DNA from: Acidimicrobiales bacterium
GTDB taxonomy: Bacteria > Actinomycetota > Acidimicrobiia > Acidimicrobiales > SHLQ01
Assembly: GCA_020629375.1 (NCBI GenBank)
Contig: JAHDDK010000005.1
Span: 23,910 to 87,909 of the forward strand
Reading direction: 5' to 3'
DNA length: 64,000 nt
Part shown: positions 25,580 through 51,325 of the stretch, piece by piece
Position numbering within the stretch: the stretch's first letter is position 1
Layout of the letters: every line of letters starts with the position of its first letter
Translations under genes and position numbers: made by a program
Notes under the pieces: model-generated
Told to the model about the DNA's origin: nothing
Databases searched by the model: none
What the model saw: only the letters and a program-made list of their open reading frames with translations

Positions 25580-25590
25580 CGCTGTCTCAA

Positions 25591-26956: not shown

Positions 26957-26959
26957 CGA

Positions 26960-31598: not shown

Positions 31599-32410
31599 GA
31601 GCCGTCCTCGGAGCCAATCGTGACCCAGGTCCAGCCCGGTTGGCGCTCGCTTGAACCGGGGTGCCAAATCTGAATTTGAGACGGTGGTGGAAGCTCACCG
31701 GGGCGGACCAGGGTGATGCGTCCCTGGGATGAGTAACGGACGAGGTCGATCCCCGGGCCGATTGACGAGTTGGGAAGACCGAGCGTGACGGTCACCTCAT
31801 CGTTTCGACCGCCGAAGGCGCCACCGTCGTCGCCGCTGCTGAGCGCCACCACGGGAACGTCGACCGCGAGGTAGAACGAGTTGGACGCGCTGTTCGAGTA
31901 GAGCACCCCAATGACGTGGACGAGCTCGCCGGCCCGCAGATCGTCGGGGATACCGTCGGGAACGACGGGGTGCTCGATTGGATCGGGAACGAGACGGTCG
32001 CCAACTGCGAGCTGCCGAACCGCACTCGTTCGTAGCGGCTCCCCGGCGGCGACTGGAGCCAGAAGCTCGATCTGCACGAGATCTGATTGGGCCCCGACAA
32101 CAATGCCGTGGTCAGCGCTGGGCGATCCGACTTCGACGTCGACTTCGACCCACGAGGTGCTGTCGAGGATCTGACCTGCCGCAGCATCGTCGGCCGCTGC
32201 GTAGACCGTGACCGTGTCCGCAGAGCTCGCAAGCAGTGCGAGCGTGACGACGAAACCGATGACACCCGCAATGAGTGCCAGCAGGAACGGCCGAGACATG
32301 GACGTGGACTTGCGTCGGGCGGTCGGCGAAGGAGGAACATGAAGTCCGTCCATCGCCGACAGGTCGTCTGGTGCGAAGAACTCGCCCGTCGGGTCCATCT
32401 GCGTCGTCAT
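31595..32410 (-). CDS. CpaB/RcpC-like SAF-domain protein
   Basis: N-terminal TM, VYAAADDAAAGQIL, PVAAGEPL, LRAGELVHVI; first gene of tad operon. Confidence 0.72.
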   Translation of the reverse strand: MTTQMDPTGEFFAPDDLSAMDGLHVPPSPTARRKSTSMSRPFLLALIAGVIGFVVTLALLASSADTVTVYAAADDAAAGQILDSTSWVEVDVEVGSPSADHGIVVGAQSDLVQIELLAPVAAGEPLRTSAVRQLAVGDRLVPDPIEHPVVPDGIPDDLRAGELVHVIGVLYSNSASNSFYLAVDVPVVALSSGDDGGAFGGRNDEVTVTLGLPNSSIGPGIDLVRYSSQGRITLVRPGELPPPSQIQIWHPGSSERQPGWTWVTIGSEDGS

Positions 32411-32434
32411 ATGTTGAGCTTGGGATCTGGACAG

Positions 32435-32450
32435 AGGTACATGTGGACCT
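32435..32450. promoter_or_regulatory. 16-bp palindromic operator, 24 nt upstream of cpaB ATG
   Basis: AGGTAC-atgt-GGACCT. Confidence 0.75.
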
Positions 32451-32535
32451 CATCCATGCAGAGAAGGACGCCGCTTCGGTGCCGTAGAGGTACAGAACGC
32501 ACGGAACCGCGGTGACGCTCTGCATGCGCGATCAG

Positions 32536-32578
32536 CGCAAGAGACGTCCGCACTATGCGCGTGCAGACGTCTCTTGCG
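32536..32578 (-). terminator. Intrinsic terminator-like hairpin downstream of giant gene A
   Basis: CGCAAGAGACGTC-T-GCAC/GTGC-G-GACGTCTCTTGCG on minus strand: 18-bp stem with one U-G pair, 7-nt loop; no U-tract. Confidence 0.65.
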
Positions 32579-32647
32579 ACTCACGACCGAGGATCATTGC
32601 AACGGTCGATGCATCTCATCAGCACGAATTCCGACGTGCCCTCGCCA

Positions 32648-35600
32648 TCACTTCGGGAGCGTGTTGACGATCGAGTACGTGAGTTGTGAGTCACTACCGA
32701 GCGTTTCCCACCCAACCTCGCTCAGCTGGGTGGATGCGTCGATGACGTAGTCAGTCAGCCCGCCGAGCAGATCTGACATCTGGCTCACCTGCACGTAGTC
32801 GCGATACGACGTGTTCAGCTGTGCCTCGTAGCGATCCAACGATCCGAAGATCTGGCCGAGCGAACTGTCTCGGGGCACATCGTCGATCGAGGAGTACCCC
32901 CCGAACCCTTCGGCCTCCCATTGGTTGAGCAATTCGGTCCGCAGGGCATCCACGTAGACCGTACCGAGCTGATCACCGTCGATTGTGGTGGCCATGTTGA
33001 GCGCTTGGTAGAAGTCGCCCTGCTGGCCGAGGGTGTACAACTGATCGACGCTGTTCTGGACAGCAGCGTCGATGTCGGGCGAGAACGCCTGGCCGGTGAC
33101 TGATCCGAGCGCTGCGTCGATGAGCGGTGCGGTGTACTTCAAGTCGGGGATGTCGGCGACTTCGCCGGTCAACACCGGGGCAGTTGGTGGCGTGAACGTC
33201 GGCGGCTGCGGCTGCAGGGCCGGGTCGGCGAAGATCACCCGTCCATCGACTACCACGGCCTGGGCCCCAGCATCGATCGACGGAACGTACTTGACGCCAC
33301 CGTTGTACGAAACCGGCCGAAGGTATGTCAGGTCTTTCAACTTGTCTTGTTGGCCCATGTCAACGAGCGTCTGGGCAATCAGGTCACCGTCGGCGATCAA
33401 CGTGTTGATCTCGGCGAGGTTGCCGACCGACTGCTGATCGACCGCACTGGTGAGCCGCTGACGACTCCCAGCAACGGTCGCATCGAAGTTCGCCCGATCT
33501 TGAGACTGCTGATAGTTGAAGATCCGAACAGCCTGCTCGTGTTGCGCGGTGGCCTGGCTCAGCTGAACGTTGTAGTTCTCGAGCGCATTTTTCTGGTCGA
33601 GGTTGTTCTGCAGTACCGGCTGATGCTCGACGACCGCCTGGTTCCATGTTTCGTTCCACTGATTCTCGTGGTACTGCCGGAACAGACTCGCTGCGTAGTT
33701 CGCCGCCTCGAGCTCGAGCTGCGACACCTGGTTCTGCTTTGCCTCAGGGTTCAGGTTGGCTTCGATCAACGCTCCCTGGAAGCCGGCCGTGCCCTCGGCA
33801 GACCGAGCGTTCAGTTGGAGCGACGACATTGCAAGGTTGTTTGCGATCGTCGACATCGTGAGCCACTGCTGAGTCACCCCGGTCTGGCCGAGCTGACGAA
33901 TCGTCCCGCCGAGACCGCCGATGATTGCTGCTGCTCCGCTCTTGTCGGCGCTGGCGATCGCACTACCGCCTCCTTCGATCACCGCACCGGCTTGGGCAAT
34001 CGCGGTGTAGAAGAGAGAAGTCGCCTGCTCGATCTCATTCGGCGACGCCGAGTCATCGCTGAACGTCCGGACAGCCTGAAGCATGTCTCCGATCGGCTTC
34101 GTCGCTGGGCGACTCTGAAGCTGGTTGATCTCCGCAAGCTCGAAATCGAGGATTCCATCGATGTCGGACCCGAACGCTGGACGCTGAAGCTCGCCTTCCG
34201 ACGTCCGGAGATCAACCATCGTGTTGAGTCCTGCAACGTCGTGATTGAGGCCGAACGGGAGCACGGAGACGTTGTCATGACCATTCGTGCCGTTCGGGAG
34301 CGCCCCGACGTCGAACTGATCGAGAAATACGCCGGCAGTCTCTCGGAGGACCTCGTCGAGCTGATGCTGATCGATTTCCTTGATCTTCGTCCTATCTCCG
34401 AACGTCCCGTACACGTGAGATAGTGCGTTCTCAATCACGGCATCGAATGTCGTCGCCTTGGCCTTCTGGATCTCGTTCTCCAACTCGATGATTCGTTTGT
34501 CGAGCGCCGACAGACCGGATGCGGTGAAGGCGTGATCCACACCAAGATTCAGTGAGGGGATCACGAAGTTCGGTCGTGAGTCGATCAGCTGCTCGAGCTC
34601 GGCTTCGAGGGCGTCGAGGTCGTAGTCGGTGTCGGAAGGCGAGAGCGTGTCCCGCCGTGTGTTGTTCGAGCCGACGGGTCCTGGGAGCCGCGTGTCGATA
34701 TCCAGCTGATTCAGCGAGTACACCGTCGATGTGTACTGATAGAGCGTCCCCCCGTTCGCGTTTTTGATGTCATTTAGAGTCCCACTGGCCGCGCCATCTG
34801 CGAGCTTCTCGTAGCGCGTGAAGTGAAGGTAGTAATTCCACTCCCCGTCAACTTCGTGCGGAATCACCGCAACCTTCGTGATCTCGTTCTGAAGTTCGAA
34901 GTCGGTGTGGCCGACGATCTGGTTCCCATAGACGTTTGGATCCACCCAACCGCCTATGCCGTTGCCGCTTTCAATGAGCGCGTTTCTGGACGCGATGTCG
35001 ATTGGCATCACGATGCCCTCGGCGTGATACGTCGCCGGAAATCCGTAGAGATGGTGATCGGCGGCCGTGTTCCCGAGAAGATCACCGGATTGCAGCTCGA
35101 CGACCGTCTCGACAACGAGCGGTGACGCCATACCAAACGATCCTCCGGGCGAGAACATCAGTTGGCCGGGAGGCGGTAGGCCGATCGACACGTAGTCGCT
35201 CCCGTCGGGCTGCTTGAGTGTGTCCAACGTGAAAAGACCGAGTGGTCCTCCGTCGGAGATTGTCGTTGCGGTAAGGACTTCTTGACCGTCGAGCATGAAA
35301 GTGCCCAGGCCAACTGGGTGGAACTGAGCCTCCGTGCCGAACTCCCAGGCCTCGCCGGACTCCAGGCTGATGTCTTCGGTCTCACCGTTCCAGTACTCGG
35401 CGGTGAACTCCATCGTGTCGGGGCCGAGATTGCGGAGGATCGCACCCTCGAGGCCCTGGCCCGTCAGTGCGGTCAGCGGTGTCTCGAGATCGCTGACCCC
35501 AACGAGTGTCGTCTGGCCGGGAACGTCGAAGCTCGTGAGCATGCCCTGGAAGCCATCCGCCGAGATCGTGGTGGTCCGGGCATAAAAGTCGAACAGCTCC

Positions 35601-38600
35601 GTTGCCGATGGTTGACGACCGAGGTCGGCAGCAAGTTCGGCGGGCGTCGATGGCGGCGGTGGCGGCGGGTCGTTGTCGTCGTCATCGTCTCCCGGATTGC
35701 CTGAGCCTCCGCTACCGATGCTGTCGGGGTCTGGCCGTAGGAGGTCGAGGGGGTCCCACCACACTCCTGGTCGACTGTCGGTGGGTCGCGTTGCGTCGAG
35801 CACGTAGTTGTTGTCTTCGTCCAAGACGACGTGCGGGATCAAGGTGTCGGCAGGCCCATCGGCGTCCCGCGGCCATTCGGGGTCGCCTTGCTCGTGGTTG
35901 TAGAGCATGTCCTCGATGTTCGAGCTGTACACCTGGAACGACAGGGCCGGGTTGCCTTCGTTGAGCTCGGGATTCGGGTCACGGAACCCGAGCTTGTCGC
36001 TCGACAGCCAGATCTTCACATGGTTGTAGGGCGAACCGTTCGCATTCAGGCGGATCTCGCCTCGCGGGATGAACTCTCCGTCTTCGTTGAATTCGCCGTA
36101 CTCGATGAGATCGCCGACTCGTTCGCTCGACCCAGGATCGACCTGAAGCGTGATCTCGTACTCGTAGCGGAGTCCCTGAGCACCCGCGCTCAGGATCGAC
36201 GGGATGGAACCCCGATCGCCAGGTGGCAAATCGTCATCGGAGTCCGTGTCGGGGAGATACTCGCCAACGAACTCGCCGAACTCGAATCCGTCGAGACCAG
36301 CTGGAATATGCGCTTCGCCGAGTCGACCTTGCGCTTTGTGGGGCATCGGGGTGAGGACGTTCAAGATGACCCGGTCACTCCCCTCCCCGCCGTCGATCAG
36401 CGTGCCGTCAGGGGCGACGAAGATCATGTAGTCGAGTGGATCCAGGTCGGCTTCGTTGACCAAGTAGTTGAACCTCTCCGGATCGAGGTTGGTCGCATTT
36501 CCCCAGCTCAGTGCGCCCATCTCGTCGACGTAGTCGTCGGTGAACCGCTCGACGTCGATCACATAAGTCACGTCGACCGAGGCGATGTCATCGCCATCTC
36601 CGAGCTCGACCGTTATCGATCGCTCATCACCGAACCGAGGATTGAGGATCCGAGGGGTCACCGTGATGTCGTTGTCTTGCGCTTCCCGTCCATCGGCGGA
36701 TTGAACCTCGAAGTAGTCGCCGCCATCGCCGGTGCGGACGATGATGTCGTCCTCGTCAAGGTCATGACGAACCTCGTAGACGACCATGTCTCGGCCGTCT
36801 CCGGTCTCCCAGATGTCGGGGTTGTCGCTGCCGTAGTCGTCGGTGTCGAAGATCGTGCCATCGCCGTTTCGGGCGATGCTGCGGTCAGCGTCGCCATCAG
36901 CGCCGAGGACGACCTCGACGTCGTAGTCACCGTCGGGGCGGAGGCGGGGGCCAGATGGGTCGATGGGACCGATCCCGTCGGGAACATCGATCCGGAGAAT
37001 CTGTTCGTCGTAGCCGTCAGCGAAGCCCGCCGTGTCGTGGCCGTCCCCGATCTCGACAATCCCGTCCGAGCCGAGCGTGCTCCGGTCGTCGCCGGCGCCG
37101 CCGTCCAAGAAGACGTCTTCGCCAGAACCTCGAAGTCGATCGTCGCCGTCGTTTCCGTAGAGCGCAACGCTCCCGTCCCCCGCGACATCGAGGTCGTCCT
37201 CGCCTGCTCCACCGTCGAAGACGACTTCTCGCACATCGTCGAACTCGACGTCGTCGTCGCCGCCGCCGAGCTGTCCGCCGGCTGCGTGTTCGCTGTCTCG
37301 GCCATCGATGTTGAGGTTTTCGTCGTTGGGTGCGTAGAGCACGAAGCCGTCGTCGGTGTCGACGTTGATGTTGTTGACTCCGTCCTCGATCGTGACCACA
37401 CCGTCGATGGTGAGCGTGTGGGTGTGGTCGGCCTTCGGGTCGTCGATGACCCGGAAGATGACGTCGTTGTCGAGCGAGCCCAGGAAGTCGATCTCGGCCT
37501 CGGTGAGGCGGCCAGGGAACCAACCGTCGCGGGTGGGATGGAGTGTGTCGCCGAAGATGATGACGATCGTGTCGTTCGGGAACAACTCCGGGAGGTAGTT
37601 CTCGAAGCGGTTGTGCCCGGACCAGTCGCCGTCTCGGAATCCGTAGTCCGTTGCGATGAGGATCTCGAAGACTCGGCCGCCATCGATCGTGGCCGTATCG
37701 CTGTTCGGTAGCTCGTCATCACCGGTGAGCGGGGGCAGGTCGGGGTCGTAGTCGAGGTCGTCTTCGTCTCGCGGTCGCGGAATGACGGTGACGCCGGGCA
37801 GCGTGAACGGCGGAAGTCCGTTGGTTCCTGGCTGCGTTGTGCCGGGCACGACAAAGCCTGCCGGGCACGGCAGGAGCGGCCCAACCCAGTTGTCCGGCGG
37901 GCCGTAGTAGTCCCCGTTCGGCAGCACGCACCATTCGCTTGCGGGGACGCCAGTCGACTCGCCAACGCCACAGTTCAATTCGACGCAGACAAGCGCGTTG
38001 ACAACAGGTGTCACCACGTTGCCAACAGCCGGTAGGGCGAAGGAGTCGGGAGCCGGCGCCACGTTCAACGGAACGAAGCCCGAAGTGTTGGCATCAACCG
38101 GCGTCGCGTCAGAGGCCTGCGCCGTCGGAGAAATCCGGAGCACCGAATGCGAACGCGAGCCAAATTCGAGCTCAGACCCATCGGCGCCGGAGACAAGCAG
38201 CGTTGCCGTCACCGAGGAAACGTCGATATCGGCACTCAGCACGACAGTCGGCGGAGCGAGGAGGCTGCCAGTGACCGAGTCGATGACTCCGCCTGCGCCG
38301 TCGGTCAAGCGCAACACCAGCTGCGCATTGCGGCCAACAACATCAAGCGCTGGAACACCGGTCACCGTGAACGTGGCTTCGCCCACAATCCCCCCGTCGC
38401 CACAGGAGCACTCGACCGCGAGACCCGAGGCCTGGGCAGCCGCAAGCACTTCGTCGTCAGTCAGCGGATCTGCGCACTCGCCGAAAAGCACCGATCCGTC
38501 TGGCTGACCACGCATACATCCCGTTGCAGCCCATTCGGCTGGCACTTGCGTACCCCCGGGGAAGTCCGAACACAGCTCGGCGATCTCCCACTGACCGGCC

Positions 38601-38836
38601 GATCCGGCGAGCGGCGTGTACCCCACGCACTCGGCCGTCGCCGGGATCGGTAGCGGACCGACCGGTTCGGCTCCAGCATCGGTGACTTCTTCCGGAACCG
38701 CCTCCTCTTCGACTGCACCGACCGGTCCAGCCGCGGCGACCACGAGCACAGCAACCGTGATCACGGCGACAACTGGCCGATGGTGTAGGGACGTAGACCA
38801 TCGTGACGAAACAGGAAAACGCTGAAGGAGTGCCAT
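32648..38836 (-). CDS. Giant secreted protein A (2062 aa) with RTX-like Ca-binding repeats and helical C-terminus
   Basis: Signal peptide ending ...AAAGPVGA; GGGDDDV, DGGAGEDDL, YGNDGDDRL, DGGAGDDRS; paralog of the next two genes. Confidence 0.85.
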   Translation of the reverse strand: MALLQRFPVSSRWSTSLHHRPVVAVITVAVLVVAAAGPVGAVEEEAVPEEVTDAGAEPVGPLPIPATAECVGYTPLAGSAGQWEIAELCSDFPGGTQVPAEWAATGCMRGQPDGSVLFGECADPLTDDEVLAAAQASGLAVECSCGDGGIVGEATFTVTGVPALDVVGRNAQLVLRLTDGAGGVIDSVTGSLLAPPTVVLSADIDVSSVTATLLVSGADGSELEFGSRSHSVLRISPTAQASDATPVDANTSGFVPLNVAPAPDSFALPAVGNVVTPVVNALVCVELNCGVGESTGVPASEWCVLPNGDYYGPPDNWVGPLLPCPAGFVVPGTTQPGTNGLPPFTLPGVTVIPRPRDEDDLDYDPDLPPLTGDDELPNSDTATIDGGRVFEILIATDYGFRDGDWSGHNRFENYLPELFPNDTIVIIFGDTLHPTRDGWFPGRLTEAEIDFLGSLDNDVIFRVIDDPKADHTHTLTIDGVVTIEDGVNNINVDTDDGFVLYAPNDENLNIDGRDSEHAAGGQLGGGDDDVEFDDVREVVFDGGAGEDDLDVAGDGSVALYGNDGDDRLRGSGEDVFLDGGAGDDRSTLGSDGIVEIGDGHDTAGFADGYDEQILRIDVPDGIGPIDPSGPRLRPDGDYDVEVVLGADGDADRSIARNGDGTIFDTDDYGSDNPDIWETGDGRDMVVYEVRHDLDEDDIIVRTGDGGDYFEVQSADGREAQDNDITVTPRILNPRFGDERSITVELGDGDDIASVDVTYVIDVERFTDDYVDEMGALSWGNATNLDPERFNYLVNEADLDPLDYMIFVAPDGTLIDGGEGSDRVILNVLTPMPHKAQGRLGEAHIPAGLDGFEFGEFVGEYLPDTDSDDDLPPGDRGSIPSILSAGAQGLRYEYEITLQVDPGSSERVGDLIEYGEFNEDGEFIPRGEIRLNANGSPYNHVKIWLSSDKLGFRDPNPELNEGNPALSFQVYSSNIEDMLYNHEQGDPEWPRDADGPADTLIPHVVLDEDNNYVLDATRPTDSRPGVWWDPLDLLRPDPDSIGSGGSGNPGDDDDDNDPPPPPPSTPAELAADLGRQPSATELFDFYARTTTISADGFQGMLTSFDVPGQTTLVGVSDLETPLTALTGQGLEGAILRNLGPDTMEFTAEYWNGETEDISLESGEAWEFGTEAQFHPVGLGTFMLDGQEVLTATTISDGGPLGLFTLDTLKQPDGSDYVSIGLPPPGQLMFSPGGSFGMASPLVVETVVELQSGDLLGNTAADHHLYGFPATYHAEGIVMPIDIASRNALIESGNGIGGWVDPNVYGNQIVGHTDFELQNEITKVAVIPHEVDGEWNYYLHFTRYEKLADGAASGTLNDIKNANGGTLYQYTSTVYSLNQLDIDTRLPGPVGSNNTRRDTLSPSDTDYDLDALEAELEQLIDSRPNFVIPSLNLGVDHAFTASGLSALDKRIIELENEIQKAKATTFDAVIENALSHVYGTFGDRTKIKEIDQHQLDEVLRETAGVFLDQFDVGALPNGTNGHDNVSVLPFGLNHDVAGLNTMVDLRTSEGELQRPAFGSDIDGILDFELAEINQLQSRPATKPIGDMLQAVRTFSDDSASPNEIEQATSLFYTAIAQAGAVIEGGGSAIASADKSGAAAIIGGLGGTIRQLGQTGVTQQWLTMSTIANNLAMSSLQLNARSAEGTAGFQGALIEANLNPEAKQNQVSQLELEAANYAASLFRQYHENQWNETWNQAVVEHQPVLQNNLDQKNALENYNVQLSQATAQHEQAVRIFNYQQSQDRANFDATVAGSRQRLTSAVDQQSVGNLAEINTLIADGDLIAQTLVDMGQQDKLKDLTYLRPVSYNGGVKYVPSIDAGAQAVVVDGRVIFADPALQPQPPTFTPPTAPVLTGEVADIPDLKYTAPLIDAALGSVTGQAFSPDIDAAVQNSVDQLYTLGQQGDFYQALNMATTIDGDQLGTVYVDALRTELLNQWEAEGFGGYSSIDDVPRDSSLGQIFGSLDRYEAQLNTSYRDYVQVSQMSDLLGGLTDYVIDASTQLSEVGWETLGSDSQLTYSIVNTLPK

Positions 38837-38860
38837 GAGTCGATCGTCTCATCGGCCTAA

Positions 38861-38876
38861 CGGTTCATACGTACCG
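38861..38876. promoter_or_regulatory. 16-bp palindromic operator, 24 nt upstream of giant gene A ATG
   Basis: CGGTTC-atac-GTACCG, flanked by GGCCTAA/TTAGGCC. Confidence 0.72.
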
Positions 38877-39007
38877 ATTTAGGCCAGCTTGACGTAGACG
38901 TAGGCAGTCACGACGTTGTACAACCCGGGAGCCGCGCTTCAGGCGGACACGTGATCTGGTTCACGACAGCGGTTCCATGGACGACCCCGCATCCGACGAC
39001 TGGGTCC

Positions 39008-42000: not shown

Positions 42001-45000
42001 CGCCGATGCCGTGTCCGGCCAAGACGCCAAGATCTGTCTCGAGATCCGTGATCGAAATCCCTCGGGCTCCTTCACCGGTGTCGTAGGTCACGAGCTCGCC
42101 AGCAAAGCCGCCGTCGGTCGAACGAACGGTGGTCGTACGAGCATAGAAATCGAACAGCTCGGTGTTGGTCGGCGGGCGGCCAAGCGCAGCCTCGAGCTCC
42201 TCTGGGGTCGATGGCGGCCCATCCGACGGATCTCCCGACGGGTCCGGCAGGCCAGCCCCCGTACCACCCGAGAAGTTGCCGCCACCTCGGAGAGCGTGGT
42301 CGATCGGATCCCACCACACACCGGGGTCATATCCCCGTGCGATCGTGGCGTCGAGCATGTGATTGTTGGATGCATCGAGGACAACACTCGGGATGAGATC
42401 GGTTGCGGGACCATTCGGCGTGTCCGGCCATCCCAGATCACCGGGAGACAACGTCGCCTCCGTTGAGGCGAATGGCCCTCCGAATACTTGGAATCCGAGT
42501 GCACCGCCAGGACCGTTTGCGTCGGGGTTGGGGTCCCGGAATGCGAGATTGGGTGTGGAGAGAAAGATCTCTTCATCTGTCGGCGCATCGAGACCGAGTC
42601 GAATCGACCCGCGTCGTACAAACGCTCCATCGATGATCTCGCCGTAGTCGATGAGATCGCCCGCACGGTGCCGACTTCCGACATGTGCCTTGATGCTGAT
42701 GTTGAACTCGAAGCGCGTCCCTGCCGGATGATCGTCAAGTTGACCGAGCCGACCGCCCGAGCCGGGCTCGTTCGGCGGCGGAGCATCGTCGCTCTCGATG
42801 TCGAGGTAGGTGCCGACGAACTCCACGTGCTCGTGGCCGGTCACGCCTCCGATGACGTGATCCATCCCCAAACGGCCCTCGACACTGCGCGGCATCGGCA
42901 TCAACACGTTCAAGATCACCCGGTCATTGCCCGCTCCGAGGTCAATGGTGACCCCTTCCGGTCCGATGAAGGTCATGTAGTTGAGCGGGTCGAGATCTGC
43001 GCGGTTGGCGAAGTACGTGAAGTTCTCTGCGTTGAGGTCTCGCCCGACCAGCCGGATTCCTCCGGGTCCCACTTCACGCACGTAGTCTGCAATGAATCGG
43101 TCCATGTCAATGATGTACGTGACATCGACTTCGACGACGTCATCCCCTTCACCTGCGTCGATGTGTGTCTCGGTCGGGGAAGACGGATTGATCGTCTGCT
43201 GGTCAACCGTCTCCCCCTCAGCCTGGACCTCGCGGCCGTTGATCGAAATCACGGAAATGTGGTCGTTCCCACCCTCGGCTTCGATGACGATGTCAGGCAC
43301 CTCGCTCTCTTCGGACCGTTGCGCCGAGTACCCATGGTCGACCTCATACCGAATCGAGTCAGCACCGTCACCGGTCTGGATGATGTCGAAGTTCGCAAGA
43401 TCTTCTTGGTTCACGACATCCCCAGCTCCCGTCGCGATCCGGAACACCTGATCTTTGAGACCGTCGTCGTCGAGTCCGATGTCGACGCCGACGACATAGA
43501 TCCCGTTCGGGTCGTCGTTGCGTCGGAAGCCCGGAGTGCCTTCGGGTACACGGACGCGAATGATCTGATCATCGACGGTGACACGATCACCGTCTTCGTT
43601 CTCATATGTCCTCGATGCACCGATCTCGTCGAGACCGTCGCCGACGTACACGACGCCCGAGCCTTCTGCAGAGATGGAGTCGTTCCCCGCGCCACCGTCG
43701 ATGATGTACTCACCTGAGTCATCAGTGACCGCAACTCTTAGTTCGTCGTCACCCGCGCCGCCGTAGACCGCTGCGTTGTCGATGTCGACCAGACGAACAG
43801 AGTCCGACCCGTCGCCGCCGTCGATGGACACGGTGTCGGCGTTGTCTCCCCTGACGCTGTCGTCCTGACCACCAAGTCGAGCAATGAGCGTGTGTTCCGT
43901 ATCGGCAACATCGATGGACACACCGCCAGGATTCTGGTTCTCTCGCGCATCGAGAACAAAGTCGTCTTCAGTGCCCACGTCGAATCCGTCAACACCGCCG
44001 CGCAAATCGATAACTCCGCTGGCGCCGTCCATCGTGTCGTAGTCCCAGTCGTGCTCGGGTGACTGGTTCTCGAACACGACCTCGCCGTCAATCCGCCCGA
44101 AGAAGTCTGGGCTGTTCGGAGCGAACTCCGACCATGACTCGCGAAAGGCACCGCCGTCGTACCAACTGCGATAGGTGAACCCGAAAGTGACGGTGTCCGA
44201 GGCACGAACCACGGTCGGCCCGGTCGGCCCGAGAGGTGAGTCCTGGTCGACTCCCCAGCCGTCTTCTGGCGGATGGCCAACGACGCCACCGTCAATGTGG
44301 TTGCCACCCTCAATCGGTCGCACGTTGGTGTAGGGCAAACCATCCGGGCCAGTCAGGTCCGGAAGATCTGGGTCGAAGTCTTCATCCTCTTCGTCCCGAG
44401 GACGCACGACAGACGGCAGAACGAAAGGTGGGAGGGTCCCTGAGTTGCCGCCACCACTTGACGATGTCGAACAGGTGACTCCATCACTCGTCACGATCGC
44501 CGGAGTTCGCTCACCACCGTCTACGCAGAAGTACGTCGTGCCATTCGATCCATCCGTTGTCGTGATGATCAACACGTTTGGGTCGCTCGCCGACACGAAC
44601 GGGGTGCATGCGTCATCGATTGGCCCGGTGTAGCCGGCAGGCGCATCGGGACTGCCGTCGGCGTTTGTGCAGTACGAGTAGGGTGCGTTCGACACCGATT
44701 CGCACGTCGGTAGAGGACCCACGCCAAATCCGGGCGTCGTATGTCCACCGGAGTCGATGCACGCCTGAGGCGTCGTCGGCGTGTTCCAGGTGAACGCCTG
44801 TGGCGAGCCGTTCGCGCCCACGCGGGCAAGAGGTGCGACCGCCGTCGGGAGCGCAGCATCGACTCCGACCGACGCCGAGGCGACGGGCGTTTCGATCTCT
44901 GCCAAACCGTTCACCGAAAGCGTGAGCACATCGACGGTCGTCGACGCCGGGAAGGTTGGGCCGTCGACCGCAATCTCGTCCACGACGTCATCGCATGTTC

Positions 45001-45658
45001 CGACGAGCGATTCGAAGGTCGCCTGTTGCTCGACAGTCAGCGGCGAGTCACCGTCCTCGTTCAGCGCAGCCTCGTACGCTGCGCACGCAGCTGGCGCTGG
45101 CGTGGTCTGCGTCAAGGTCGAGCTCCCAAAGGTCGCGACGGCAGAGACTTCGGTGGCGCCACCCTCGCCGAAGATGATCTCGACACGCTCTCCGAAGGAC
45201 CGCTCGGTTCCGCCTCCGTCAGCGAAGTAGGCGCCTGCCGGCAACTGCCACACGACGGAATCGACGGTTGCCGATCCGGCAATCGCAACACCGCTGACTT
45301 CGTCGTCGATGGCGATGGTGCCAGAACCGTCGAGCCAGAACGACACCGCAGAGCCGACCAATACCCCTTCACCGCTGGAGTCAGAGTTGAGCGAGAACTG
45401 CGCTGCGCCAAACATGGCCGCTTCGCCGTCCTCAAGGGTCTCCGTGCTCGCCACACCGGGCGATTCGAAGTCGTCTGCGCTGTCGAGCGCCAACAGCTCG
45501 ACGAGTTCGGCAATGTCATCGTCGGTCACGTCGACGTCGCCCTCCGTCTCCTGCGCAATGGCGACCGAAGAGTTCAACCCGAAGAGGACGATGAGCAATG
45601 ACGCCATCGCACATGAGGCGGCCATCGGTCGGATGAGGGGCGAGTACCTGCTATTCAT
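39008..45658 (-). CDS. Giant secreted protein B (2216 aa) with RTX-like Ca-binding repeats and helical C-terminus
   Basis: Signal peptide ending ...SSVAIA-Q; DGGDGSDSV, YGGAGDDEL, DGGAGNDSI, AGEGDDVV, LGAGNDRV. Confidence 0.85.
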   Translation of the reverse strand: MNSRYSPLIRPMAASCAMASLLIVLFGLNSSVAIAQETEGDVDVTDDDIAELVELLALDSADDFESPGVASTETLEDGEAAMFGAAQFSLNSDSSGEGVLVGSAVSFWLDGSGTIAIDDEVSGVAIAGSATVDSVVWQLPAGAYFADGGGTERSFGERVEIIFGEGGATEVSAVATFGSSTLTQTTPAPAACAAYEAALNEDGDSPLTVEQQATFESLVGTCDDVVDEIAVDGPTFPASTTVDVLTLSVNGLAEIETPVASASVGVDAALPTAVAPLARVGANGSPQAFTWNTPTTPQACIDSGGHTTPGFGVGPLPTCESVSNAPYSYCTNADGSPDAPAGYTGPIDDACTPFVSASDPNVLIITTTDGSNGTTYFCVDGGERTPAIVTSDGVTCSTSSSGGGNSGTLPPFVLPSVVRPRDEEDEDFDPDLPDLTGPDGLPYTNVRPIEGGNHIDGGVVGHPPEDGWGVDQDSPLGPTGPTVVRASDTVTFGFTYRSWYDGGAFRESWSEFAPNSPDFFGRIDGEVVFENQSPEHDWDYDTMDGASGVIDLRGGVDGFDVGTEDDFVLDARENQNPGGVSIDVADTEHTLIARLGGQDDSVRGDNADTVSIDGGDGSDSVRLVDIDNAAVYGGAGDDELRVAVTDDSGEYIIDGGAGNDSISAEGSGVVYVGDGLDEIGASRTYENEDGDRVTVDDQIIRVRVPEGTPGFRRNDDPNGIYVVGVDIGLDDDGLKDQVFRIATGAGDVVNQEDLANFDIIQTGDGADSIRYEVDHGYSAQRSEESEVPDIVIEAEGGNDHISVISINGREVQAEGETVDQQTINPSSPTETHIDAGEGDDVVEVDVTYIIDMDRFIADYVREVGPGGIRLVGRDLNAENFTYFANRADLDPLNYMTFIGPEGVTIDLGAGNDRVILNVLMPMPRSVEGRLGMDHVIGGVTGHEHVEFVGTYLDIESDDAPPPNEPGSGGRLGQLDDHPAGTRFEFNISIKAHVGSRHRAGDLIDYGEIIDGAFVRRGSIRLGLDAPTDEEIFLSTPNLAFRDPNPDANGPGGALGFQVFGGPFASTEATLSPGDLGWPDTPNGPATDLIPSVVLDASNNHMLDATIARGYDPGVWWDPIDHALRGGGNFSGGTGAGLPDPSGDPSDGPPSTPEELEAALGRPPTNTELFDFYARTTTVRSTDGGFAGELVTYDTGEGARGISITDLETDLGVLAGHGIGGALLRNTSPDAVRFTATFWNGEEREVTVLPGQGWQFGPGHQYVPVELGVTQRHGDGMLVATSISDLSPIHLYSNPNYSDEEFGDTYYGNRTGMVRLPDEGQVTFTPPGGILGIEETSLVVETTSNLFIDDLRSQDIHDSTETAHHLFGFPAVRHVEAVLLPIGPGSFNSLVNAGRDPFAPYDYDEISAAAVPHADYNPLPRESVARLFTRRDAEGRMIHEIEIARFDRLEDDDAAYQQSQLRTAGGDLYRYTKTTYSLNEFHHDYIDLADPTGETLNREIWDYHALGSDLTELELRQRRLQLEAEIDEITASMESLEGPFGQPGGRLDRSDWLRLRRERNDLMAEYLRLEKPFYDELVTGVVAGIHGLDSYEESELVDAFGANLDERGGRIVTDLTQNGLQSLLYGATTRFQRYGAGLMPSGSVGVDGVNALPFSWPATMSNNAGRGDMISLAEGADTSAPGWDSDARAIFNRPRWEIEEMRESNDLITQLRGELAYNNRRMQDNSLPQTERLAARSAFWTVSGQLFEAMGAVGALGQVDPGVSRGGQIAKNLFDATQRMSKVSELGNLRQWVGLTAEANRIAAQNQTIARNAEANSASFRAAIVAANTNAHAKKLEITALERELTDWVGEMYERGHRSEHAQLTNQILADNAQLSNVREQREADIAAYQAQVARIDETYGDTLSQWESRRDLARTIVETSRSDTSSAGSMQFRLARALEDEAIMNDLIRRGNAIAGAVEHRMNTEADPAVARAIGLRLEDHSVLTPITNPFTGEEVLIPNPTIAAVAALPDGATPDAQTGEYSIYSVQFHDDMLGAPRPVRPTVAFPDFSIEAALAPEIAYVESQISTRLNAIDSAIDSPAVDAAVSRTVDQMHQYVADSDWDGLASLEAQLDGEPLGTRFASQIEAELRAQATADGYADTEWFGFVLETLDRVESDLNTAFRDYAQLHQLSAAYGDLEAYMFATNDAFLNDAWNEMIGANGAASNFRLVDTVPKN

Positions 45659-45683
45659 GACGCAGGCCCCATCACGTCCGTAG

Positions 45684-45745
45684 CGGTACGTTCGGACCGA
45701 AATGACAGGTATCTAGGTGCCGACGCAATAGGTACATGTACGCAT
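45684..45745. promoter_or_regulatory. Operator array (three sites, 23-bp period); proximal site 25 nt upstream of giant gene B ATG
   Basis: CGGTAC-gttc-GGACCG (45684), AGGTAT-ctag-GTGCCG (45707), AGGTAC-atgt-acgcat half-site (45730). Confidence 0.72.
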
Positions 45746-45903
45746 GTCGGCCTTCGGGCGATCGATCAGCCCCCCTGTCTCGGGGATGTTCCCGAACTCG
45801 ATGATGCTGTCCGAGACGAATCTGTCCGTCCGAGGTGAACGGCCAGGCGACTGGCCGATCGAGATGGATGCTTGCTCAGGTGGGCCGACGGAAACGTGAC
45901 TCG

Positions 45904-48900
45904 CTACGAGCTCGGCGGTCTCGCAGCGTCGGGCGAGTCCGGAATGAACCTCAGACCCTCATCCCAGACGAAGTCTGCCTGTCCAATCCGGATTCGGAAC
46001 TCGTCTTCTGCGGAATAGGTTTCCGTATAGAGGTTGGGATGCCCCCAGCCGTACGCGACATCGAAGTTGCCGTGTAAGAGAATGTTGGCAGCGAAGGCTG
46101 ATAGTCCGCCGGCAGTCAGAAGCGAAAGGTCGGGGGCAGGGCCGTTGGCGAAGTCTCCGAGAATCACCGGTCCTGCGAGTGCGGATCCGACGGTACCCAC
46201 ACCATGCAGGGCGAGACCCGTGCCAATTCGCCGGGCAATCGGGTTCGAAACGATGTTTGTGTTGAATCCAGAGATTCCGCCGAGATACGGGTTGTCCTCG
46301 AGTTCTTCTTGAGTGTGGTTGACGTCGTTCGCTGGGCCGTTGAGCGAGAACGCTCCTGCGTAGTAGCCACCCCTGTGCAGAAAGGGCGAGGCGAAGTTGA
46401 CTGCCGTGACCAGCTTGGCCATCGCAGTCACCTGCCCATTCCCCGTGTTGAGGATGACGGAGAGTTCGGTGCCCGTCTGCACCGGACCAATCGCCGGAAA
46501 GCTGAACCGCGCAGATGACCGCAACGGGGAGTCCTGGTTCACGCTGGCGACGATGAGCGGCGGCTTTCCAGAGGGCAGCAGTCGACGGAACGGGTCGGTG
46601 GCGTTCTTGTCGAGGGGCAACGCGACCGTGATGCTGACACCCTGATACGCACCAGTGATCGCGAGCACGTCGGGGTGGGTGATGTCGACCAGCGCTGTTT
46701 CGAACTGTCGCTCAACATTGCTCACGAGCTCATCTCGGTTCGACCAGGTAAGGTCCATGACCGTGTCGACGGTCTCGTCGAGATCATCGCCGATCCAGTC
46801 CCTCACGGGGCTGTCGAACATCGCCGTCGCTACATGAAGTTCATTGAGCATGTTGTCCAACGGTGGGCGGTGTTCGACTTGACCAACAACCTGGTTTCGG
46901 GTCGGCAGGCTCCCCTGGATCGCAAGCTGGTCAACTCCGGGACCGGGCGGGTTCTCACGAACGAACTCGATGTTTCCTCGATGGGCGGCCTCGTGTTGCC
47001 GCGCCGCGAAGAGATCCATGTTCTCAGGATCTCCGAGCAGCGAGATCCCCGCTCCGATGTCAAGTCGATCGATGGAGTCAATTTCTTCGGTCGTGAACCA
47101 CGACGAACCTCCTACTGCCTGCTGCAAAAGGCCTTCGGCGTCCGTCCGGCCGTATGCACGCGTCCGGGCAGCGTTCTGCAAATCTGGGTCGTCGAGCAAA
47201 GAGATGTCCGCAACGAAGCTCCGGAAGTCATCAAAGTCGCTCTGCTCACGCCACAGGACGTCGACCGGGTCGAATATCTCGCCGAGATCTCCCGTCCACG
47301 ATCCGATATCGGTTGTGACATGCAGCGGCCGAGCGTCGAGAACGTCACCTGGCTCGTAGTCGTCGGGGAGGACGTCGGTGATCACGTACTCGAAGTTCGT
47401 GCCGTTGAGTTCGGCACGGAGGAGTTTCGTGCCACCGAAACCGTCAACTGCCGTCGTCAGAGCCTTGAAGCCTCCGCTTTCGTCCAGGGCAACAGAAACC
47501 TTCTGATCCTTGTGCGGCGCGAAGGTGAACGCTCCCGAGCCGTAGTCCTGTGGAAGCCCGGTCTCGGGCGTCTGCCACTCAATAACCCGCGATCCGCCCT
47601 CGATTGAGACGACGTTCTCCGTCCGATCTCCAAGATCGATCGGCCCGACCACGCGGACATCCGCATCGGGGGACATCAACCGTGGCGCAAAGTCGGTCCC
47701 TGGCAGATCGGCGAGAATCATGGTGTCGCCCGCAAGCAGTGTCTCACCTCCGACGACCGCGGCGTGGCGTTCTGCCGGGTAGGCCATCTCCCAACCTTCA
47801 CCGGGCTGAAGCGTGACGACTTCCTTCGTGTCGTTCCAGTGGGTCACCCGGAAAGTCAGCGGCTCGTCATGTTGATTTCGCAGCGTTGCGCCCGTCAGTC
47901 CTCGGTCGGCGAGATTCTCGAAGTTTCGTGGGGTGAGGAGCAGTGGATGATTGGCCGATTCACGCCACGTCGGCTCATGGGCGGCTCTCTGTTCGTTGCT
48001 CTCGAGATACAGCGCCTCGCCGTCGAACAGCACGCGATCTCGTGTATCGCCCCACGCCTCGATGCCCGTGTGGCGAACAAGCCAGTCGAAGCGATCGCTC
48101 GGCGTGATATCCGCGCCTCCGCTGACGTCCTCGAGGCGCTGGTTGAACTCGGTCCAAGACGTCCCGCCTGAGCCCGACCCAGTACCTCGACTTGCGCCAT
48201 TCCATAGCGGTAGGTCGGTGATCGACGGGGACCCTCCACCGGTTGGCGGCGAAGACGACGCCGGTGGAGTTGGTTCGTTCATGCCAGGCCCAAGATCGGG
48301 TGCGCTGCCAAGCCGTACCTCCCCAGGATCGAGACCCCACGTCGAGGTGACCTCGTGGGTCACCCCAGTTTGTGGGTCGACAGTCGTCATATCGGTGAAG
48401 AACAACTCGAACGCAATGTTCTGATCTGACGGATTGCGAAAGGCGATTCGATCCGGGTTCTCGACAACGATCGACGTTCGAGTATCCGCCCACTGAAAGA
48501 TCCGCCGACGGCCACGAAAGATGAACTCGCCATCGTCGTTCAGCTCGCCAACATCGACGAACGCTTCGTTTCGGGCCGTTGGGTCATTGGCGTACTCGAC
48601 TGCAGTGGGGCCTGCGGCCTTGACGCGGAATCGGTACGTCCAGCCGTCGTTGAGGTCCGGCGCATTCGAGTTGTAGCCCGTGTAGTGAGCACCTGAACCA
48701 CCGTGATCCTCACCACTGACGCCGGGAGACGTCGGCGACGCTGGAGGGTCGTCGGGTACGGGAATCCATTCGGCGACAATCTCCAGGTTCTCGAACCCGA
48801 GCACCGTTCCGACATCCACAGTGTCTTCGAGATCGCCCACCCCCAGAACCGTGTTCTCCGGTAGTGGGTTGAGGACGTTGAGTACGATCGTGTCGCCATC

Positions 48901-51285
48901 ACCGGCTCCACCATCGATGGCTCCGGTGCTGGGCAACACCCACTTGAGGTACTCCGCTGGCTGAAGCTCGGCTTCAGCCCCCCAGTACGCGAATTCGTAC
49001 ACGTCGAACTCATCGGGTAGTTGATGAGACGTGATGTCTCGGACATCTCGGACGAACCGGTCCCACTCGACCTCGTACACCGCATCGACAGTGACACGGT
49101 CGTTGTCCAACCCGGCTTGCAGTTCGAACGGGCGCTCTTCGACCAGGTCATCTCGCTCGACCCAGTCCCCCGACTGGTCGACTTGTCGACCACGGCTGGA
49201 GATGAACGCTATTGCATCAGCCCCTAGGCCCGAGTCGATCTCCATACCCCCATTGGTCTCCGTGCCAAAGCGCGCATCCACGACCACTGAATCATCCGCG
49301 ACACCGCCAAGAATCAGCTCAGTGATGTCGTCTGACCCGTTCGGGTTGAGGAGCCGGTCGCCATCGGACGTGATGATCGTGGACCATCCCTCGGTGTCTT
49401 CGTCGAAGCCGACAGAGACGTCGATTGGCATGCCACTCTCGACATGAACTTCGATGACCTCGCCATCGGCATCGACGGTGTCTTCTCCCGCGCCGATGAT
49501 CGCCCGGTGGACGCCATCATTGTTCGCGCCGTGTCCTTGGAACCGAACCGTGTCATCTCCCCGGCCACCAATGAATGTCCCGAAGTCAAGTTCGGCGGTA
49601 TCGTCGCCATCTCCGCCGAGCACGACGGCATTTCGGTCCTCGGTAAACTCCGCCCGGCCCCAGTACTGGCCGTGGCCACCGCGCGCGGTGATGGAGTCGT
49701 TGCCGTCGCCTGCGGCGATTGTTGATGACGTGAGATGTCCAAGCGACGCTGTGTCGTCACCGCCTCCGAGATCGACGATCCCGTGGCTCACATTGCCTTG
49801 CCAGTCGAGATCGACGTTCGTGTCGTCGAACCGCAGGACTCCGTCGTCGAGATAGTCGTAGGTACTGAGGATGACGGCGGTGCCTGACACGTCCAGCCAC
49901 AGCGAGTCAGGATCCAAGGCGCCAAAGTCGACCGGGGTCTCTGAGACAAATCGAATGCGGCCTGCGAATGTGTAGAGGAAGGCCTGTTCCTCAACTGAGA
50001 GCGCGTCGCCCAGGGTCGTTCCGTTGTCCAGACGGAGGTCGAGCGTCAGCGTGTCGGTCGGCCAGCTCGCACCGAGATGGAGGAATCGGTTCTCCCGGTG
50101 TTCGGCTTCACGGTCGATGATGACTTCGAAGTCCACACCACTCGTCGGCGGGACAACTCGAGTCGTCAGGACACCATCGCCATTGAGGAACGTGTCACCG
50201 CCCCCTCCGTTTGATCCCTCGCCGCTGTCTCCATCGCCGCCACCACCGTTGCCGCTGTCACCGTCGTCGCCGTCACCGTCGCCAGATCCATCATCGATGA
50301 TGACGACGAGCTCGTCATCATCATCCTCGTTGAGCACAACGGTCGGCAGGTCGGGAACCGGAACCGTCGAACCACTTGGCGAACCCCCGGACCCACCTGG
50401 TGTTCCACTGACGAGCGGAAATGCAGCCGCACCGGGGATGATCAGGCCCTCGGGGGCAGCCGGTCCCATGACGCCTGCGGGCAACACCTCTCCACCGCGA
50501 GGAATAACGGTCGAGGGAACGAACACACCGGTCACGGGTCGTTGTGCTGGCGTCTGTGACTCGGGCTGGCCTGTGGGCGCCACTGCCACGACGGTGAAAC
50601 TCAAACGTCCGACCTCGTAGCCGTCTGCTCGATCGGAGCCAGCGAGTAAGACCGCAGTGACGCTCTGACCCGCCAACGCGTCAACGATCAGGGCACCATT
50701 TCCAACACGGGTGCCAAGCTCCGTATCGTCGCTCGTCCGGACCTCCAACCAAACGTCGACTCCCGGACCGGTTACGTCGGGACCAGGGACGCCGCTGACG
50801 ACGAGCTCGATCTGACCAGCAAGCACGGTCCCGCTGCACCCGCAGGACGTGGCAACACCTGCGTCGAGCAACGCCGTGACCAGGTCTGCGCCGCCAAGCG
50901 GGACAACATCACACCCGCCAGCAACCAACACGCCTTCATCCATCCAGACACATTCGGCACCGACCGGTGGTGTGGCGATCGTGACGCCGGCAGGCGGTAC
51001 CAGCTCACATGTCGCAGGATCTTGGGGAATGGAGACCGAGTCAGCACCAACCATGACGCACGGGCTGTCTGCGATGGCCGTGGACACTGCCCTCGGCGAG
51101 GGACCAACGGCTGTTCGGATCTCCAACGCGATGTCGTCTTCGTGATCAGCGGAAGGATCGGCCTCCACGAGCGCACCTGCGGCGGAGACACCCGCGATCA
51201 AACCAGCGGCGCACAACGAAATGCCAATCCCGCCAAAGCGTCGCACGACTGTCCACTGCGTCGACCGAACCTGCATGTAGCCCAT
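45904..51285 (-). CDS. Giant secreted protein C (1793 aa) with RTX-like Ca-binding repeats and distinct C-terminus
   Basis: Signal peptide ending ...GVSAAGA; LGGGDDTA, AGDGNDSI, GGDGDDTA, GGRGDDTV, DGGAGDGDTIVLNVL. Confidence 0.85.
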   Translation of the reverse strand: MGYMQVRSTQWTVVRRFGGIGISLCAAGLIAGVSAAGALVEADPSADHEDDIALEIRTAVGPSPRAVSTAIADSPCVMVGADSVSIPQDPATCELVPPAGVTIATPPVGAECVWMDEGVLVAGGCDVVPLGGADLVTALLDAGVATSCGCSGTVLAGQIELVVSGVPGPDVTGPGVDVWLEVRTSDDTELGTRVGNGALIVDALAGQSVTAVLLAGSDRADGYEVGRLSFTVVAVAPTGQPESQTPAQRPVTGVFVPSTVIPRGGEVLPAGVMGPAAPEGLIIPGAAAFPLVSGTPGGSGGSPSGSTVPVPDLPTVVLNEDDDDELVVIIDDGSGDGDGDDGDSGNGGGGDGDSGEGSNGGGGDTFLNGDGVLTTRVVPPTSGVDFEVIIDREAEHRENRFLHLGASWPTDTLTLDLRLDNGTTLGDALSVEEQAFLYTFAGRIRFVSETPVDFGALDPDSLWLDVSGTAVILSTYDYLDDGVLRFDDTNVDLDWQGNVSHGIVDLGGGDDTASLGHLTSSTIAAGDGNDSITARGGHGQYWGRAEFTEDRNAVVLGGDGDDTAELDFGTFIGGRGDDTVRFQGHGANNDGVHRAIIGAGEDTVDADGEVIEVHVESGMPIDVSVGFDEDTEGWSTIITSDGDRLLNPNGSDDITELILGGVADDSVVVDARFGTETNGGMEIDSGLGADAIAFISSRGRQVDQSGDWVERDDLVEERPFELQAGLDNDRVTVDAVYEVEWDRFVRDVRDITSHQLPDEFDVYEFAYWGAEAELQPAEYLKWVLPSTGAIDGGAGDGDTIVLNVLNPLPENTVLGVGDLEDTVDVGTVLGFENLEIVAEWIPVPDDPPASPTSPGVSGEDHGGSGAHYTGYNSNAPDLNDGWTYRFRVKAAGPTAVEYANDPTARNEAFVDVGELNDDGEFIFRGRRRIFQWADTRTSIVVENPDRIAFRNPSDQNIAFELFFTDMTTVDPQTGVTHEVTSTWGLDPGEVRLGSAPDLGPGMNEPTPPASSSPPTGGGSPSITDLPLWNGASRGTGSGSGGTSWTEFNQRLEDVSGGADITPSDRFDWLVRHTGIEAWGDTRDRVLFDGEALYLESNEQRAAHEPTWRESANHPLLLTPRNFENLADRGLTGATLRNQHDEPLTFRVTHWNDTKEVVTLQPGEGWEMAYPAERHAAVVGGETLLAGDTMILADLPGTDFAPRLMSPDADVRVVGPIDLGDRTENVVSIEGGSRVIEWQTPETGLPQDYGSGAFTFAPHKDQKVSVALDESGGFKALTTAVDGFGGTKLLRAELNGTNFEYVITDVLPDDYEPGDVLDARPLHVTTDIGSWTGDLGEIFDPVDVLWREQSDFDDFRSFVADISLLDDPDLQNAARTRAYGRTDAEGLLQQAVGGSSWFTTEEIDSIDRLDIGAGISLLGDPENMDLFAARQHEAAHRGNIEFVRENPPGPGVDQLAIQGSLPTRNQVVGQVEHRPPLDNMLNELHVATAMFDSPVRDWIGDDLDETVDTVMDLTWSNRDELVSNVERQFETALVDITHPDVLAITGAYQGVSITVALPLDKNATDPFRRLLPSGKPPLIVASVNQDSPLRSSARFSFPAIGPVQTGTELSVILNTGNGQVTAMAKLVTAVNFASPFLHRGGYYAGAFSLNGPANDVNHTQEELEDNPYLGGISGFNTNIVSNPIARRIGTGLALHGVGTVGSALAGPVILGDFANGPAPDLSLLTAGGLSAFAANILLHGNFDVAYGWGHPNLYTETYSAEDEFRIRIGQADFVWDEGLRFIPDSPDAARPPSS

Positions 51286-51309
51286 GTCACATCTTTAGGG
51301 CAGGCCGAA

Positions 51310-51325
51310 AGGTACGAATGTACCT
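51310..51325. promoter_or_regulatory. 16-bp palindromic operator, 24 nt upstream of giant gene C ATG
   Basis: AGGTAC-gaat-GTACCT (perfect arms). Confidence 0.78.

Follow-up and report, generated by a model that had tools for sequence, protein, structure and literature searches.

The 64,000-nt stretch analysed here (the window), positions 23,910 to 87,909 of contig JAHDDK010000005.1 from an Acidimicrobiales bacterium (GenBank assembly GCA_020629375.1), carries short palindromic dyads at a nearly constant distance ahead of genes for giant secreted proteins and for a Tad-type pilus. We propose, with a probability of roughly 60%, that these dyads are operators of an RpiR/MurR-family regulator encoded in the same window (54848..55753, minus strand), lie over the -35 region of leaderless promoters and link a putative operon for the catabolism of N-methylated compounds to giant surface proteins and the Tad pilus. 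The ancestral, conserved targets of this regulator would be its own operon, in which RpiR is followed by genes for an aminotransferase, a Rieske oxygenase and a PrpD-like protein, and a divergent gene for a dimethylglycine/sarcosine dehydrogenase-like (DMGDH-like) protein. In this genome, the operator core GGTAC-N4-GTACC would in addition cover positions -40..-25 of the promoters of five orphan giants, three encoded in the window and two on other contigs, and the promoter of the accessory Tad pilus operon would likewise be under an RpiR operator at -40..-25. An RpiR dimer bound at this position would occupy the usual place of sigma region 4.

The sequence readout confirms four 16-bp palindromes reported in the original prediction, all on the minus strand, with spacings of 24, 24, 25 and 24 nt to the respective ATG codons, and the outermost bases of all four are indeed complementary (A..T or C..G). 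The dyads are AGGTCCACATGTACCT (32435..32450), 24 nt 5' of ATG 32410 of the CpaB-like gene, the first gene of the tad cluster; CGGTACGTATGAACCG (38861..38876), 24 nt 5' of ATG 38836 of giant protein 3; CGGTCCGAACGTACCG (45684..45699), 25 nt 5' of ATG 45658 of giant protein 2; and AGGTACATTCGTACCT (51310..51325), which has a perfect core and is located 24 nt 5' of ATG 51285 of giant protein 1. A TAA triplet found 2 nt ahead of the latter dyad was read as the stop codon of the PrpD-like gene, a reading unchecked against the coordinates. A fifth dyad, absent from the original prediction, is the perfect TGGTACAGATGTACCA (55746..55761) in the divergent region between the RpiR and DMGDH-like genes, where it overlaps the RpiR start codon (spanning -8..+8 of ATG 55753) and is located 65 nt ahead of the GTG at 55827. 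All five dyads fall within 23 kb.

The degenerate word GGTWC-N4-GKACC has 7 matches in the window, corresponding to the 5 distinct sites, compared with a mean of 0.48 in shuffled sequences; none of the 100 shuffles reached 7, so that a chance origin of the cluster was rejected. The picture is different for the whole genome (4.41 Mb in 164 contigs, 64.5% GC, 87.6% complete), for which a scan with this word had been suggested: the word is not enriched, yet the sites are clustered and non-randomly placed. Among the 28 distinct degenerate sites, 5 are inside the window, and given the lack of genome-wide enrichment, most of the 28 are probably noise. The perfect core GGTAC-N4-GTACC occurs only 5 times in the genome, and both counts are roughly those estimated from composition. 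When all sites in the genome were ranked with a position weight matrix (PWM), the five window sites took the top five places, a circular result inasmuch as the PWM was built from those same sites.

Placement is more telling than frequency. A genome scan for cores ahead of an ATG at the head of a long open reading frame (ORF) showed that three of the five perfect cores are followed by exactly 24 nt and then by the ATG of a giant ORF, namely giant 1 and two genes outside the window. The first of these, g46 (contig C46, 6113-13958), encodes a 2602-aa secreted protein and is preceded at 24 nt by the dyad GGGTACGGATGTACCC; the second, g66 (contig C66, 112899-119028), encodes a 2030-aa secreted protein and is preceded at the same distance by AGGTACACGTGTACCC. 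Thus, the layout in which a dyad is followed by 24 or 25 nt and an ATG recurs at six genes of three unrelated protein groups (spacings 24, 24, 25, 24, 24 and 24 nt). The original observation is thereby confirmed and enlarged, with seven clear sites in all. The outer pair is complementary in six of the seven dyads and comes in four different combinations, A..T, C..G, T..A (the RpiR site) and G..C (the C46 site), the A..C of the C66 site being the only non-complementary pair. A simple protein-contact model does not account for this pattern, which is not seen at the orthologue sites described below. The g46 and g66 promoters also share an extra GTACC half-site at -14..-10, which overlaps their -10 hexamers TACCCT and TACCGT.

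Several further dyad-like words were noticed. A degenerate second core, GGCACCTAGATACC, with two mismatches (45708..45721, minus strand), is located upstream of the giant-2 dyad, with 23 bp separating the two centres; its significance is uncertain. A core with one mismatch at 38541-38554 belongs to the coding region of giant 3, some 320 bp downstream from its promoter dyad, and is followed after 24 nt by an in-frame ATG; it is possibly an auxiliary operator or else a chance occurrence. Near the end of contig C51, the perfect palindrome GGGTACGCGCGTACCC (49181-49196), the last of the five perfect cores, is found 18 nt past the in-frame ATG of an ORF that by eye resembles a sugar transferase, and could be a downstream operator or a product of chance.

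The promoters to which the dyads belong appear to be of the leaderless type. Start signals were analysed for 868 long ORFs with high GC content at third codon positions, with the first ATG or GTG taken as the putative start. The motif nAnnnT starting at -12 is present in 122 of the 868 (14.1%), against 15-53, or about 3%, at every other offset. The more stringent TAnnnT starts at -12 in 71 ORFs; its counts are 21-26 at offsets -13 to -15 and 0-6 at most others. C is the preferred base at -1, and a Shine-Dalgarno-like word precedes only 225 of the 868 ORFs. The leaderless-type promoters contain no -35 information (in 246 of them, no position exceeds 0.16 bits). From the genome-wide peak at -12, it follows that the dyad covers -40..-25.

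Among the six target promoters, nAnnnT is located exactly at -12 in four, as CAAGCT (32417..32422, minus strand, -12..-7 from ATG 32410), GACGAT (38843..38848, minus strand, -12..-7 from ATG 38836) and the two hexamers of g46 and g66 given above. In the giant-1 promoter, the candidate -10 hexamer is TAAAGA followed by T (51292..51297, minus strand, -12..-7 from ATG 51285), which is not nAnnnT. The hexamers CAAGCT, GACGAT and AAAGAT that had been described upstream of three ATG codons are present, no AGGAGG-like sequence was seen upstream of the four window ATGs, and a Shine-Dalgarno sequence was not seen at any of the six target promoters; by contrast, the GTG of the divergent DMGDH-like gene is preceded by the Shine-Dalgarno-like GAGAGGA. 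The -12 peak, the four of six targets that conform to it and the recurrence of the layout on two other contigs together support the earlier proposal of leaderless promoters with a dyad over the -35 position, and on these sequence statistics the target promoters are probably leaderless, with transcription predicted to start at the ATG. A scan for sigma-70 consensus promoters and terminators returned 0 promoters and no intergenic terminators, an outcome that is uninformative for Actinobacteria. Inspection by eye for a -35 element of extracytoplasmic function (ECF) sigma factors (GGAAC-like) or for a second, downstream dyad found neither consistently across the sites, and both were rejected.

The link to RpiR comes from comparative analysis of its orthologues. 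RpiR relatives at 50-75% identity are numerous; out of 535 found, 80 loci from Acidimicrobiia, Chloroflexia, Nitriliruptorales, Alpha- and Gammaproteobacteria made up the orthologue set, and these were searched with a PWM derived exclusively from the four originally reported sites (14 core positions). Synteny is kept in this set: the DMGDH-like gene is divergent from RpiR, which is followed by aminotransferase, Rieske and PrpD genes in Actinobacteria or by the Rieske gene in Proteobacteria. Sites scoring at least 12 bits are present in 29 of 79 windows around orthologue starts compared to 24 of 6025 control windows from the same loci, and 52 of the 80 loci have a site that reaches 10 bits in the interval from -1500 to +60. 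The 44 distinct best sites yield the consensus TGGTACAWWTGTACCA, with which the fifth window dyad, TGGTACAGATGTACCA, agrees down to its T..A outer bases, and positions 2-15 of the targets fit this consensus as well. The outer pair is complementary in 19 of the 44 orthologue sites, all of these T..A. Across 25 aligned RpiR orthologues, there is little or no variation in VKPNTLVR, the presumed recognition-helix region. The proposed binder is also the only HTH_6 protein found in this genome (87.6% complete). Since the dyad is conserved at the promoters of RpiR orthologues across phyla and no other HTH_6 protein was found, the RpiR-family protein is the likely binder of the dyads.

The original prediction had assigned this role to the LAL-type LuxR-family protein (21700..24147, minus strand), as an activator. 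In favour of this choice, the LAL gene ends the tad cluster and encodes a GerE/LuxR helix-turn-helix (HTH) domain, and a 5-4-5 dyad is a plausible geometry for LuxR/NarL-type regulators; a 16-bp dyad overlapping the -35 region is indeed familiar in Actinobacteria from the sites of PimM-type PAS-LuxR proteins and from DosR boxes, although PimM is a PAS-LuxR protein rather than a LAL. Here, unlike in the PimM and DosR systems, the motif accompanies an RpiR-family gene in several phyla, and no link to a LuxR-family protein was found. A LAL homologue is present in none of the 80 RpiR-orthologue loci within the fetched flanks, the 52 dyad-bearing ones included, the region upstream of the LAL gene contains no dyad at up to one mismatch (the only nearby match is inside the LAL coding sequence), the gene is far from the equally arranged C46 and C66 sites, which are on other contigs, and the fifth dyad sits on the start codon of RpiR, not at LAL. 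Activation by LAL is thus not supported, and we consider binding of the dyads by this protein highly improbable. A more serious competitor, albeit itself improbable, is another dimeric regulator of overlapping specificity, for example of the TetR family, that would bind the targets and leave to RpiR only its own T..A-flanked site. The motif is not exclusive to RpiR because the 16-mer TGGTACAGATGTACCA occurs identically in two other genomes of the order (position 4030 of the locus fetched from G274 and position 4015 of that from G064), between genes for a TetR-family and an alpha/beta-hydrolase-like protein and with no RpiR homologue in the fetched flanks. In our genome, a dyad with one mismatch, CGGTACCGACGGACCA (contig C89, 113588-113603), lies 22 nt ahead of the ATG of a 193-aa TetR-family gene, which adjoins a short-chain dehydrogenase gene, and the outer bases of the targets are unlike those of the RpiR consensus. 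However, no close orthologue of the TetR proteins of those two genomes is encoded here (at most 44% identity over 48 residues), and the dyad is upstream of none of six homologues of the C89 TetR gene, one of them 71% identical. Moreover, the agreement of the targets with the RpiR-orthologue consensus at positions 2-15 and the clustering of five of the seven clear sites around the RpiR gene both favour RpiR over such a regulator.

It is also conceivable that the dyads are not protein-binding sites at all but RNA or DNA hairpins that serve as a processing site, stabiliser or attenuator. The complementary outer pair, with its four different combinations in six of seven sites, is what pairing would produce, and four of the seven 20-mers outfold nearly all shuffled sequences (0, 1, 0 and 13 of 200 shuffles fold as well). 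Nevertheless, folding energies of the seven 20-mers are only -3.1 to -10.5 kcal/mol, the giant-3 and giant-2 dyads are matched by 59 and 78 of 200 shuffles, respectively, and in three of the seven sites, there is an uncompensated mismatch at stem position 5. At RpiR promoters, it is the sequence itself, not merely the pairing, that is conserved across phyla. If the promoters are leaderless, the dyad is outside the mRNA, and no T-tract terminators were detected in the four intergenic regions scanned. We therefore regard a hairpin function as extremely improbable.

Several observations weigh against the assignment of the dyads to RpiR and against the promoter architecture proposed here. No site reaches 10 bits in 28 of the 80 orthologue loci. 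The targets differ in their outer bases (A..T, C..G, G..C and A..C) from the T..A preferred in orthologues, and two target half-sites are GGTCC, a rare variant among orthologue sites. The strict pattern TGGTACANNTGNACCA, sought in a sample of 300 genomes of the order, matched 0 of the 5 RpiR-positive and 18 of the 295 RpiR-negative ones; a reversed-pattern control matched about 36 genomes, and the strict motif shows no correlation with the presence of RpiR, an outcome that is uninformative or mildly unfavourable to the assignment. Around the two TetR-adjacent copies of TGGTACAGATGTACCA, no RpiR or DMGDH homologue was detected in the approximately 8 kb that were fetched. With respect to the promoters, no nAnnnT or other -10-like hexamer was found in the 25-nt spacer of the giant-2 promoter, and in public gene calls, giant 3 (2038 aa) starts 24 codons and giant 2 (2205 aa) 11 codons downstream of the ATG assumed in this analysis; for giant 1, g66 and RpiR (301 aa), the public starts are identical to ours.

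As for the sign of regulation, we lean modestly towards repression. The orthologue dyads lie right next to a start codon (0-3 nt), be it that of RpiR, of the DMGDH-like gene or of an intervening gene, and are often paired 31 bp apart, containing TACAnT hexamers; because they overlap these hexamers and abut start codons, this arrangement suggests occlusion of the -10 element and the transcription start, i.e., repression. At promoters that lack a -35 element, a dimer occupying -40..-25 would also be likely to stand in the way of RNA polymerase. Repression would be relieved by a metabolite of the pathway bound at the SIS domain, such that the substrate would switch on catabolism, the giants and the pili together. 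A strictly fixed spacing, on the other hand, argues for a stereospecific role and is commoner with activators than with repressors, and this point counts against the repressor model. According to a study of RccR, most members of the RpiR family are repressors (PMC11014249).

The opposite possibility, which we judge unlikely yet worth spelling out, is that RpiR binds the dyads as an activator that replaces the absent -35 contact. The spacing of 24 or 25 nt is kept across three unrelated gene groups despite diverged spacer sequences, typical leaderless promoters of this genome lack -35 information, and at several targets the -10 hexamers are weak or absent, all of which would fit an activator. 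RpiR-family activators exist, SpNanR of Streptococcus pneumoniae being an example, but the SpNanR site is about 55 bp upstream of the -35 box and not over it (bioRxiv 10.64898/2025.12.10.693482). The repressor-like position of the orthologue operators, over -10-like hexamers and start codons, also speaks against activation, and short blocks are shared, by eye, within the promoter pairs of paralogues, so that part of the fixed spacing may be inherited. In its most far-reaching form, this possibility would have RpiR at exactly -40..-25 substitute for the sigma region 4 contact and activate the five giants and the accessory Tad pilus as one regulon during catabolism of a specific N-methylated compound, a nutrient-to-adhesion switch that one lineage of Acidimicrobiia would have acquired as a package; we consider this scenario unlikely.

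On the reading that we favour, in which RpiR binds the dyads, the system is a known class, an RpiR-family operator with its regulon, that combines an unusual fixed promoter geometry with unusual targets. The closest comparison is with RccR and HexR of Pseudomonas, which are HTH_6 plus SIS one-component regulators that are autoregulated and bind short inverted repeats in metabolic promoters, the RccR operator being TGTAGT-N3-ACTACA, an inverted repeat with 6-bp arms; RccR also reaches non-metabolic targets (PMC11014249). The regulator described here has the same HTH_6 plus SIS architecture, and the 6-4-6 repeat nGGTAC-N4-GTACCn resembles the RccR operator as given there, but the half-site is GGTAC rather than TGTAGT and the spacer is 4 nt instead of 3 or 16; furthermore, giant secreted proteins and a pilus operon are targeted here, from a fixed position on leaderless promoters. 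KDPG (2-keto-3-deoxy-6-phosphogluconate) is unlikely to be the effector because the conserved operon looks like one for N-methyl-amine catabolism. SpNanR is an RpiR-family dimer or tetramer with near-palindromic sites of 18 bp, several of them across one gene cluster (bioRxiv 10.64898/2025.12.10.693482). Possible use of an extra half-site is a point of likeness, given the additional GTACC in the g46 and g66 promoters, whereas the 18-bp sites, well upstream of the -35 box, differ from a dyad over the -35 region. Literature searches, mostly at the level of listings, returned no account of this subfamily and none of an RpiR operator with the sequence TGGTAC-N4-GTACCA.

For an RpiR subfamily that is widespread but uncharacterised, and tied to a set of DMGDH-like, Rieske and PrpD-like genes in Acidimicrobiia, Chloroflexia and marine Proteobacteria, the analysis provides a testable operator consensus together with a conserved core regulon. 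It also points to an apparent expansion of the regulon in one uncultured actinobacterium, to five orphan secreted proteins of 1800-2600 residues and a Tad pilus, all with one fixed operator position. If this is correct, the use of an osmolyte-like nutrient would be tied to surface attachment, the orphan giant proteins would obtain a first functional handle, and the promoters would represent a clean natural case of a regulator at the -35 position where there is neither a -35 element nor a leader.

The expansion was not found elsewhere in the genomes searched: five other RpiR-positive genomes contain 0-3 perfect cores each, against 4-7 in the control, and none has the layout with a dyad, 24 nt and an ATG. 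In the fetched flanks of the 80 orthologue loci, there is no match to the giants, CpaB, CpaF, the tad genes or LAL. Likewise, RpiR, each of the five giants and the tad cluster are found in none of 40 relatives, 24 of them congeners. GC content is 0.60-0.64 across 20-52 kb of the window compared to 0.64-0.67 in the flanks, and positions 20000-52000 look like an acquired island. Given the absence of the components from the 40 relatives, the lower GC content, the lack of detectable relatives of the giants in the protein collections searched and the absence of the layout from the five other RpiR-positive genomes, the expanded regulon looks like an accessory feature of the lineage.

On the minus strand, the genes are arranged in the order RpiR, aminotransferase, Rieske, PrpD-like, giants 1, 2 and 3, the CpaB-like gene, the Tad set and the LAL-type gene. 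Giant protein 1 (1793 aa, 45904..51285), giant protein 2 (2216 aa, 39008..45658) and giant protein 3 (2062 aa, 32648..38836), all encoded on the minus strand, belong to no Pfam family, have N-terminal signal-like segments and contain RTX-like GGxGxD repeats; giants 2 and 3 are 32% identical. The g46 and g66 proteins also have signal-like N-terminal sequences and no Pfam family. By BLASTP, giants 1-3 of the window fall into one group; a second is made up of g46 and g66, which are 24% identical over 1136 residues, and no match connects the two groups. Giant 3 has no match in the 40 relatives, and in a search of 5.8 billion proteins, the scored candidates included no match other than giant 3 itself; its central 1200 residues, compared with 1.84 billion representatives, recovered only the protein itself, giants 1 and 2, and six sequences matched weakly via one short stretch (query residues ~130-250). 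The g46 and g66 proteins were not matched in the 40 relatives either, and g66 matched only itself in the protein-collection search. Divergently upstream of g46 (contig C46, 4916-5914, minus strand), there is a gene for a SARP-like protein in which Trans_reg_C and BTAD are fused to a Ser/Thr protein-kinase domain.

The Tad-type pilus cluster as a whole (24334..32410, minus strand) consists of genes for the CpaB-like protein (31595-32410; Atlas score 0.94, whereas Pfam SAF is matched only at E = 0.11), a 464-aa ORF (30273-31667), the CpaF ATPase (28963-30282), TadB and TadC (27216-29083), a TadE-like protein (25591-26025) and a prepilin peptidase (24334-24873), all on the minus strand, with the LAL-type gene, whose product also has a weak AAA_16 match, at its end. 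The window CpaF shares only about 33% identity with congener CpaFs, and the genome has three other CpaF-like genes.

The RpiR/MurR-family protein itself matches Pfam HTH_6 with 31.8 bits (cut-off 28.3) and SIS with 52 bits (cut-off 25); the NCBIfam MurR/RpiR models match it below their equivalog cut-offs, and the closest solved structures are those of the MurR/RpiR-family proteins 8ju9 and 8k3b (E ~1e-10). Downstream of it on the minus strand are genes for a HisC-like aminotransferase (53720-54838), a GbcA-like Rieske oxygenase (52630-53685) and an MmgE/PrpD-family protein (51374-52633), and divergent from it on the plus strand is the gene for the DMGDH-like protein, with DAO and GcvT domains (55827..58277). 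Together, this operon and the DMGDH-like gene look like a system for the demethylation of an N-methylated (betaine-like) compound. In four loci, three of Aldehydirespiratoraceae and one of Acidimicrobiales, which have no strong site near RpiR, the dyad-like word TGGTACATGTTGACCA is found in the same relative place, ~3.5-4 kb downstream of the PrpD-like gene, and may mark another conserved target. A 526-aa ORF next to the DMGDH-like gene in the window (58296-59876, minus strand) has a weak, far below cut-off NCBIfam match to EccC-like type VII secretion ATPases.

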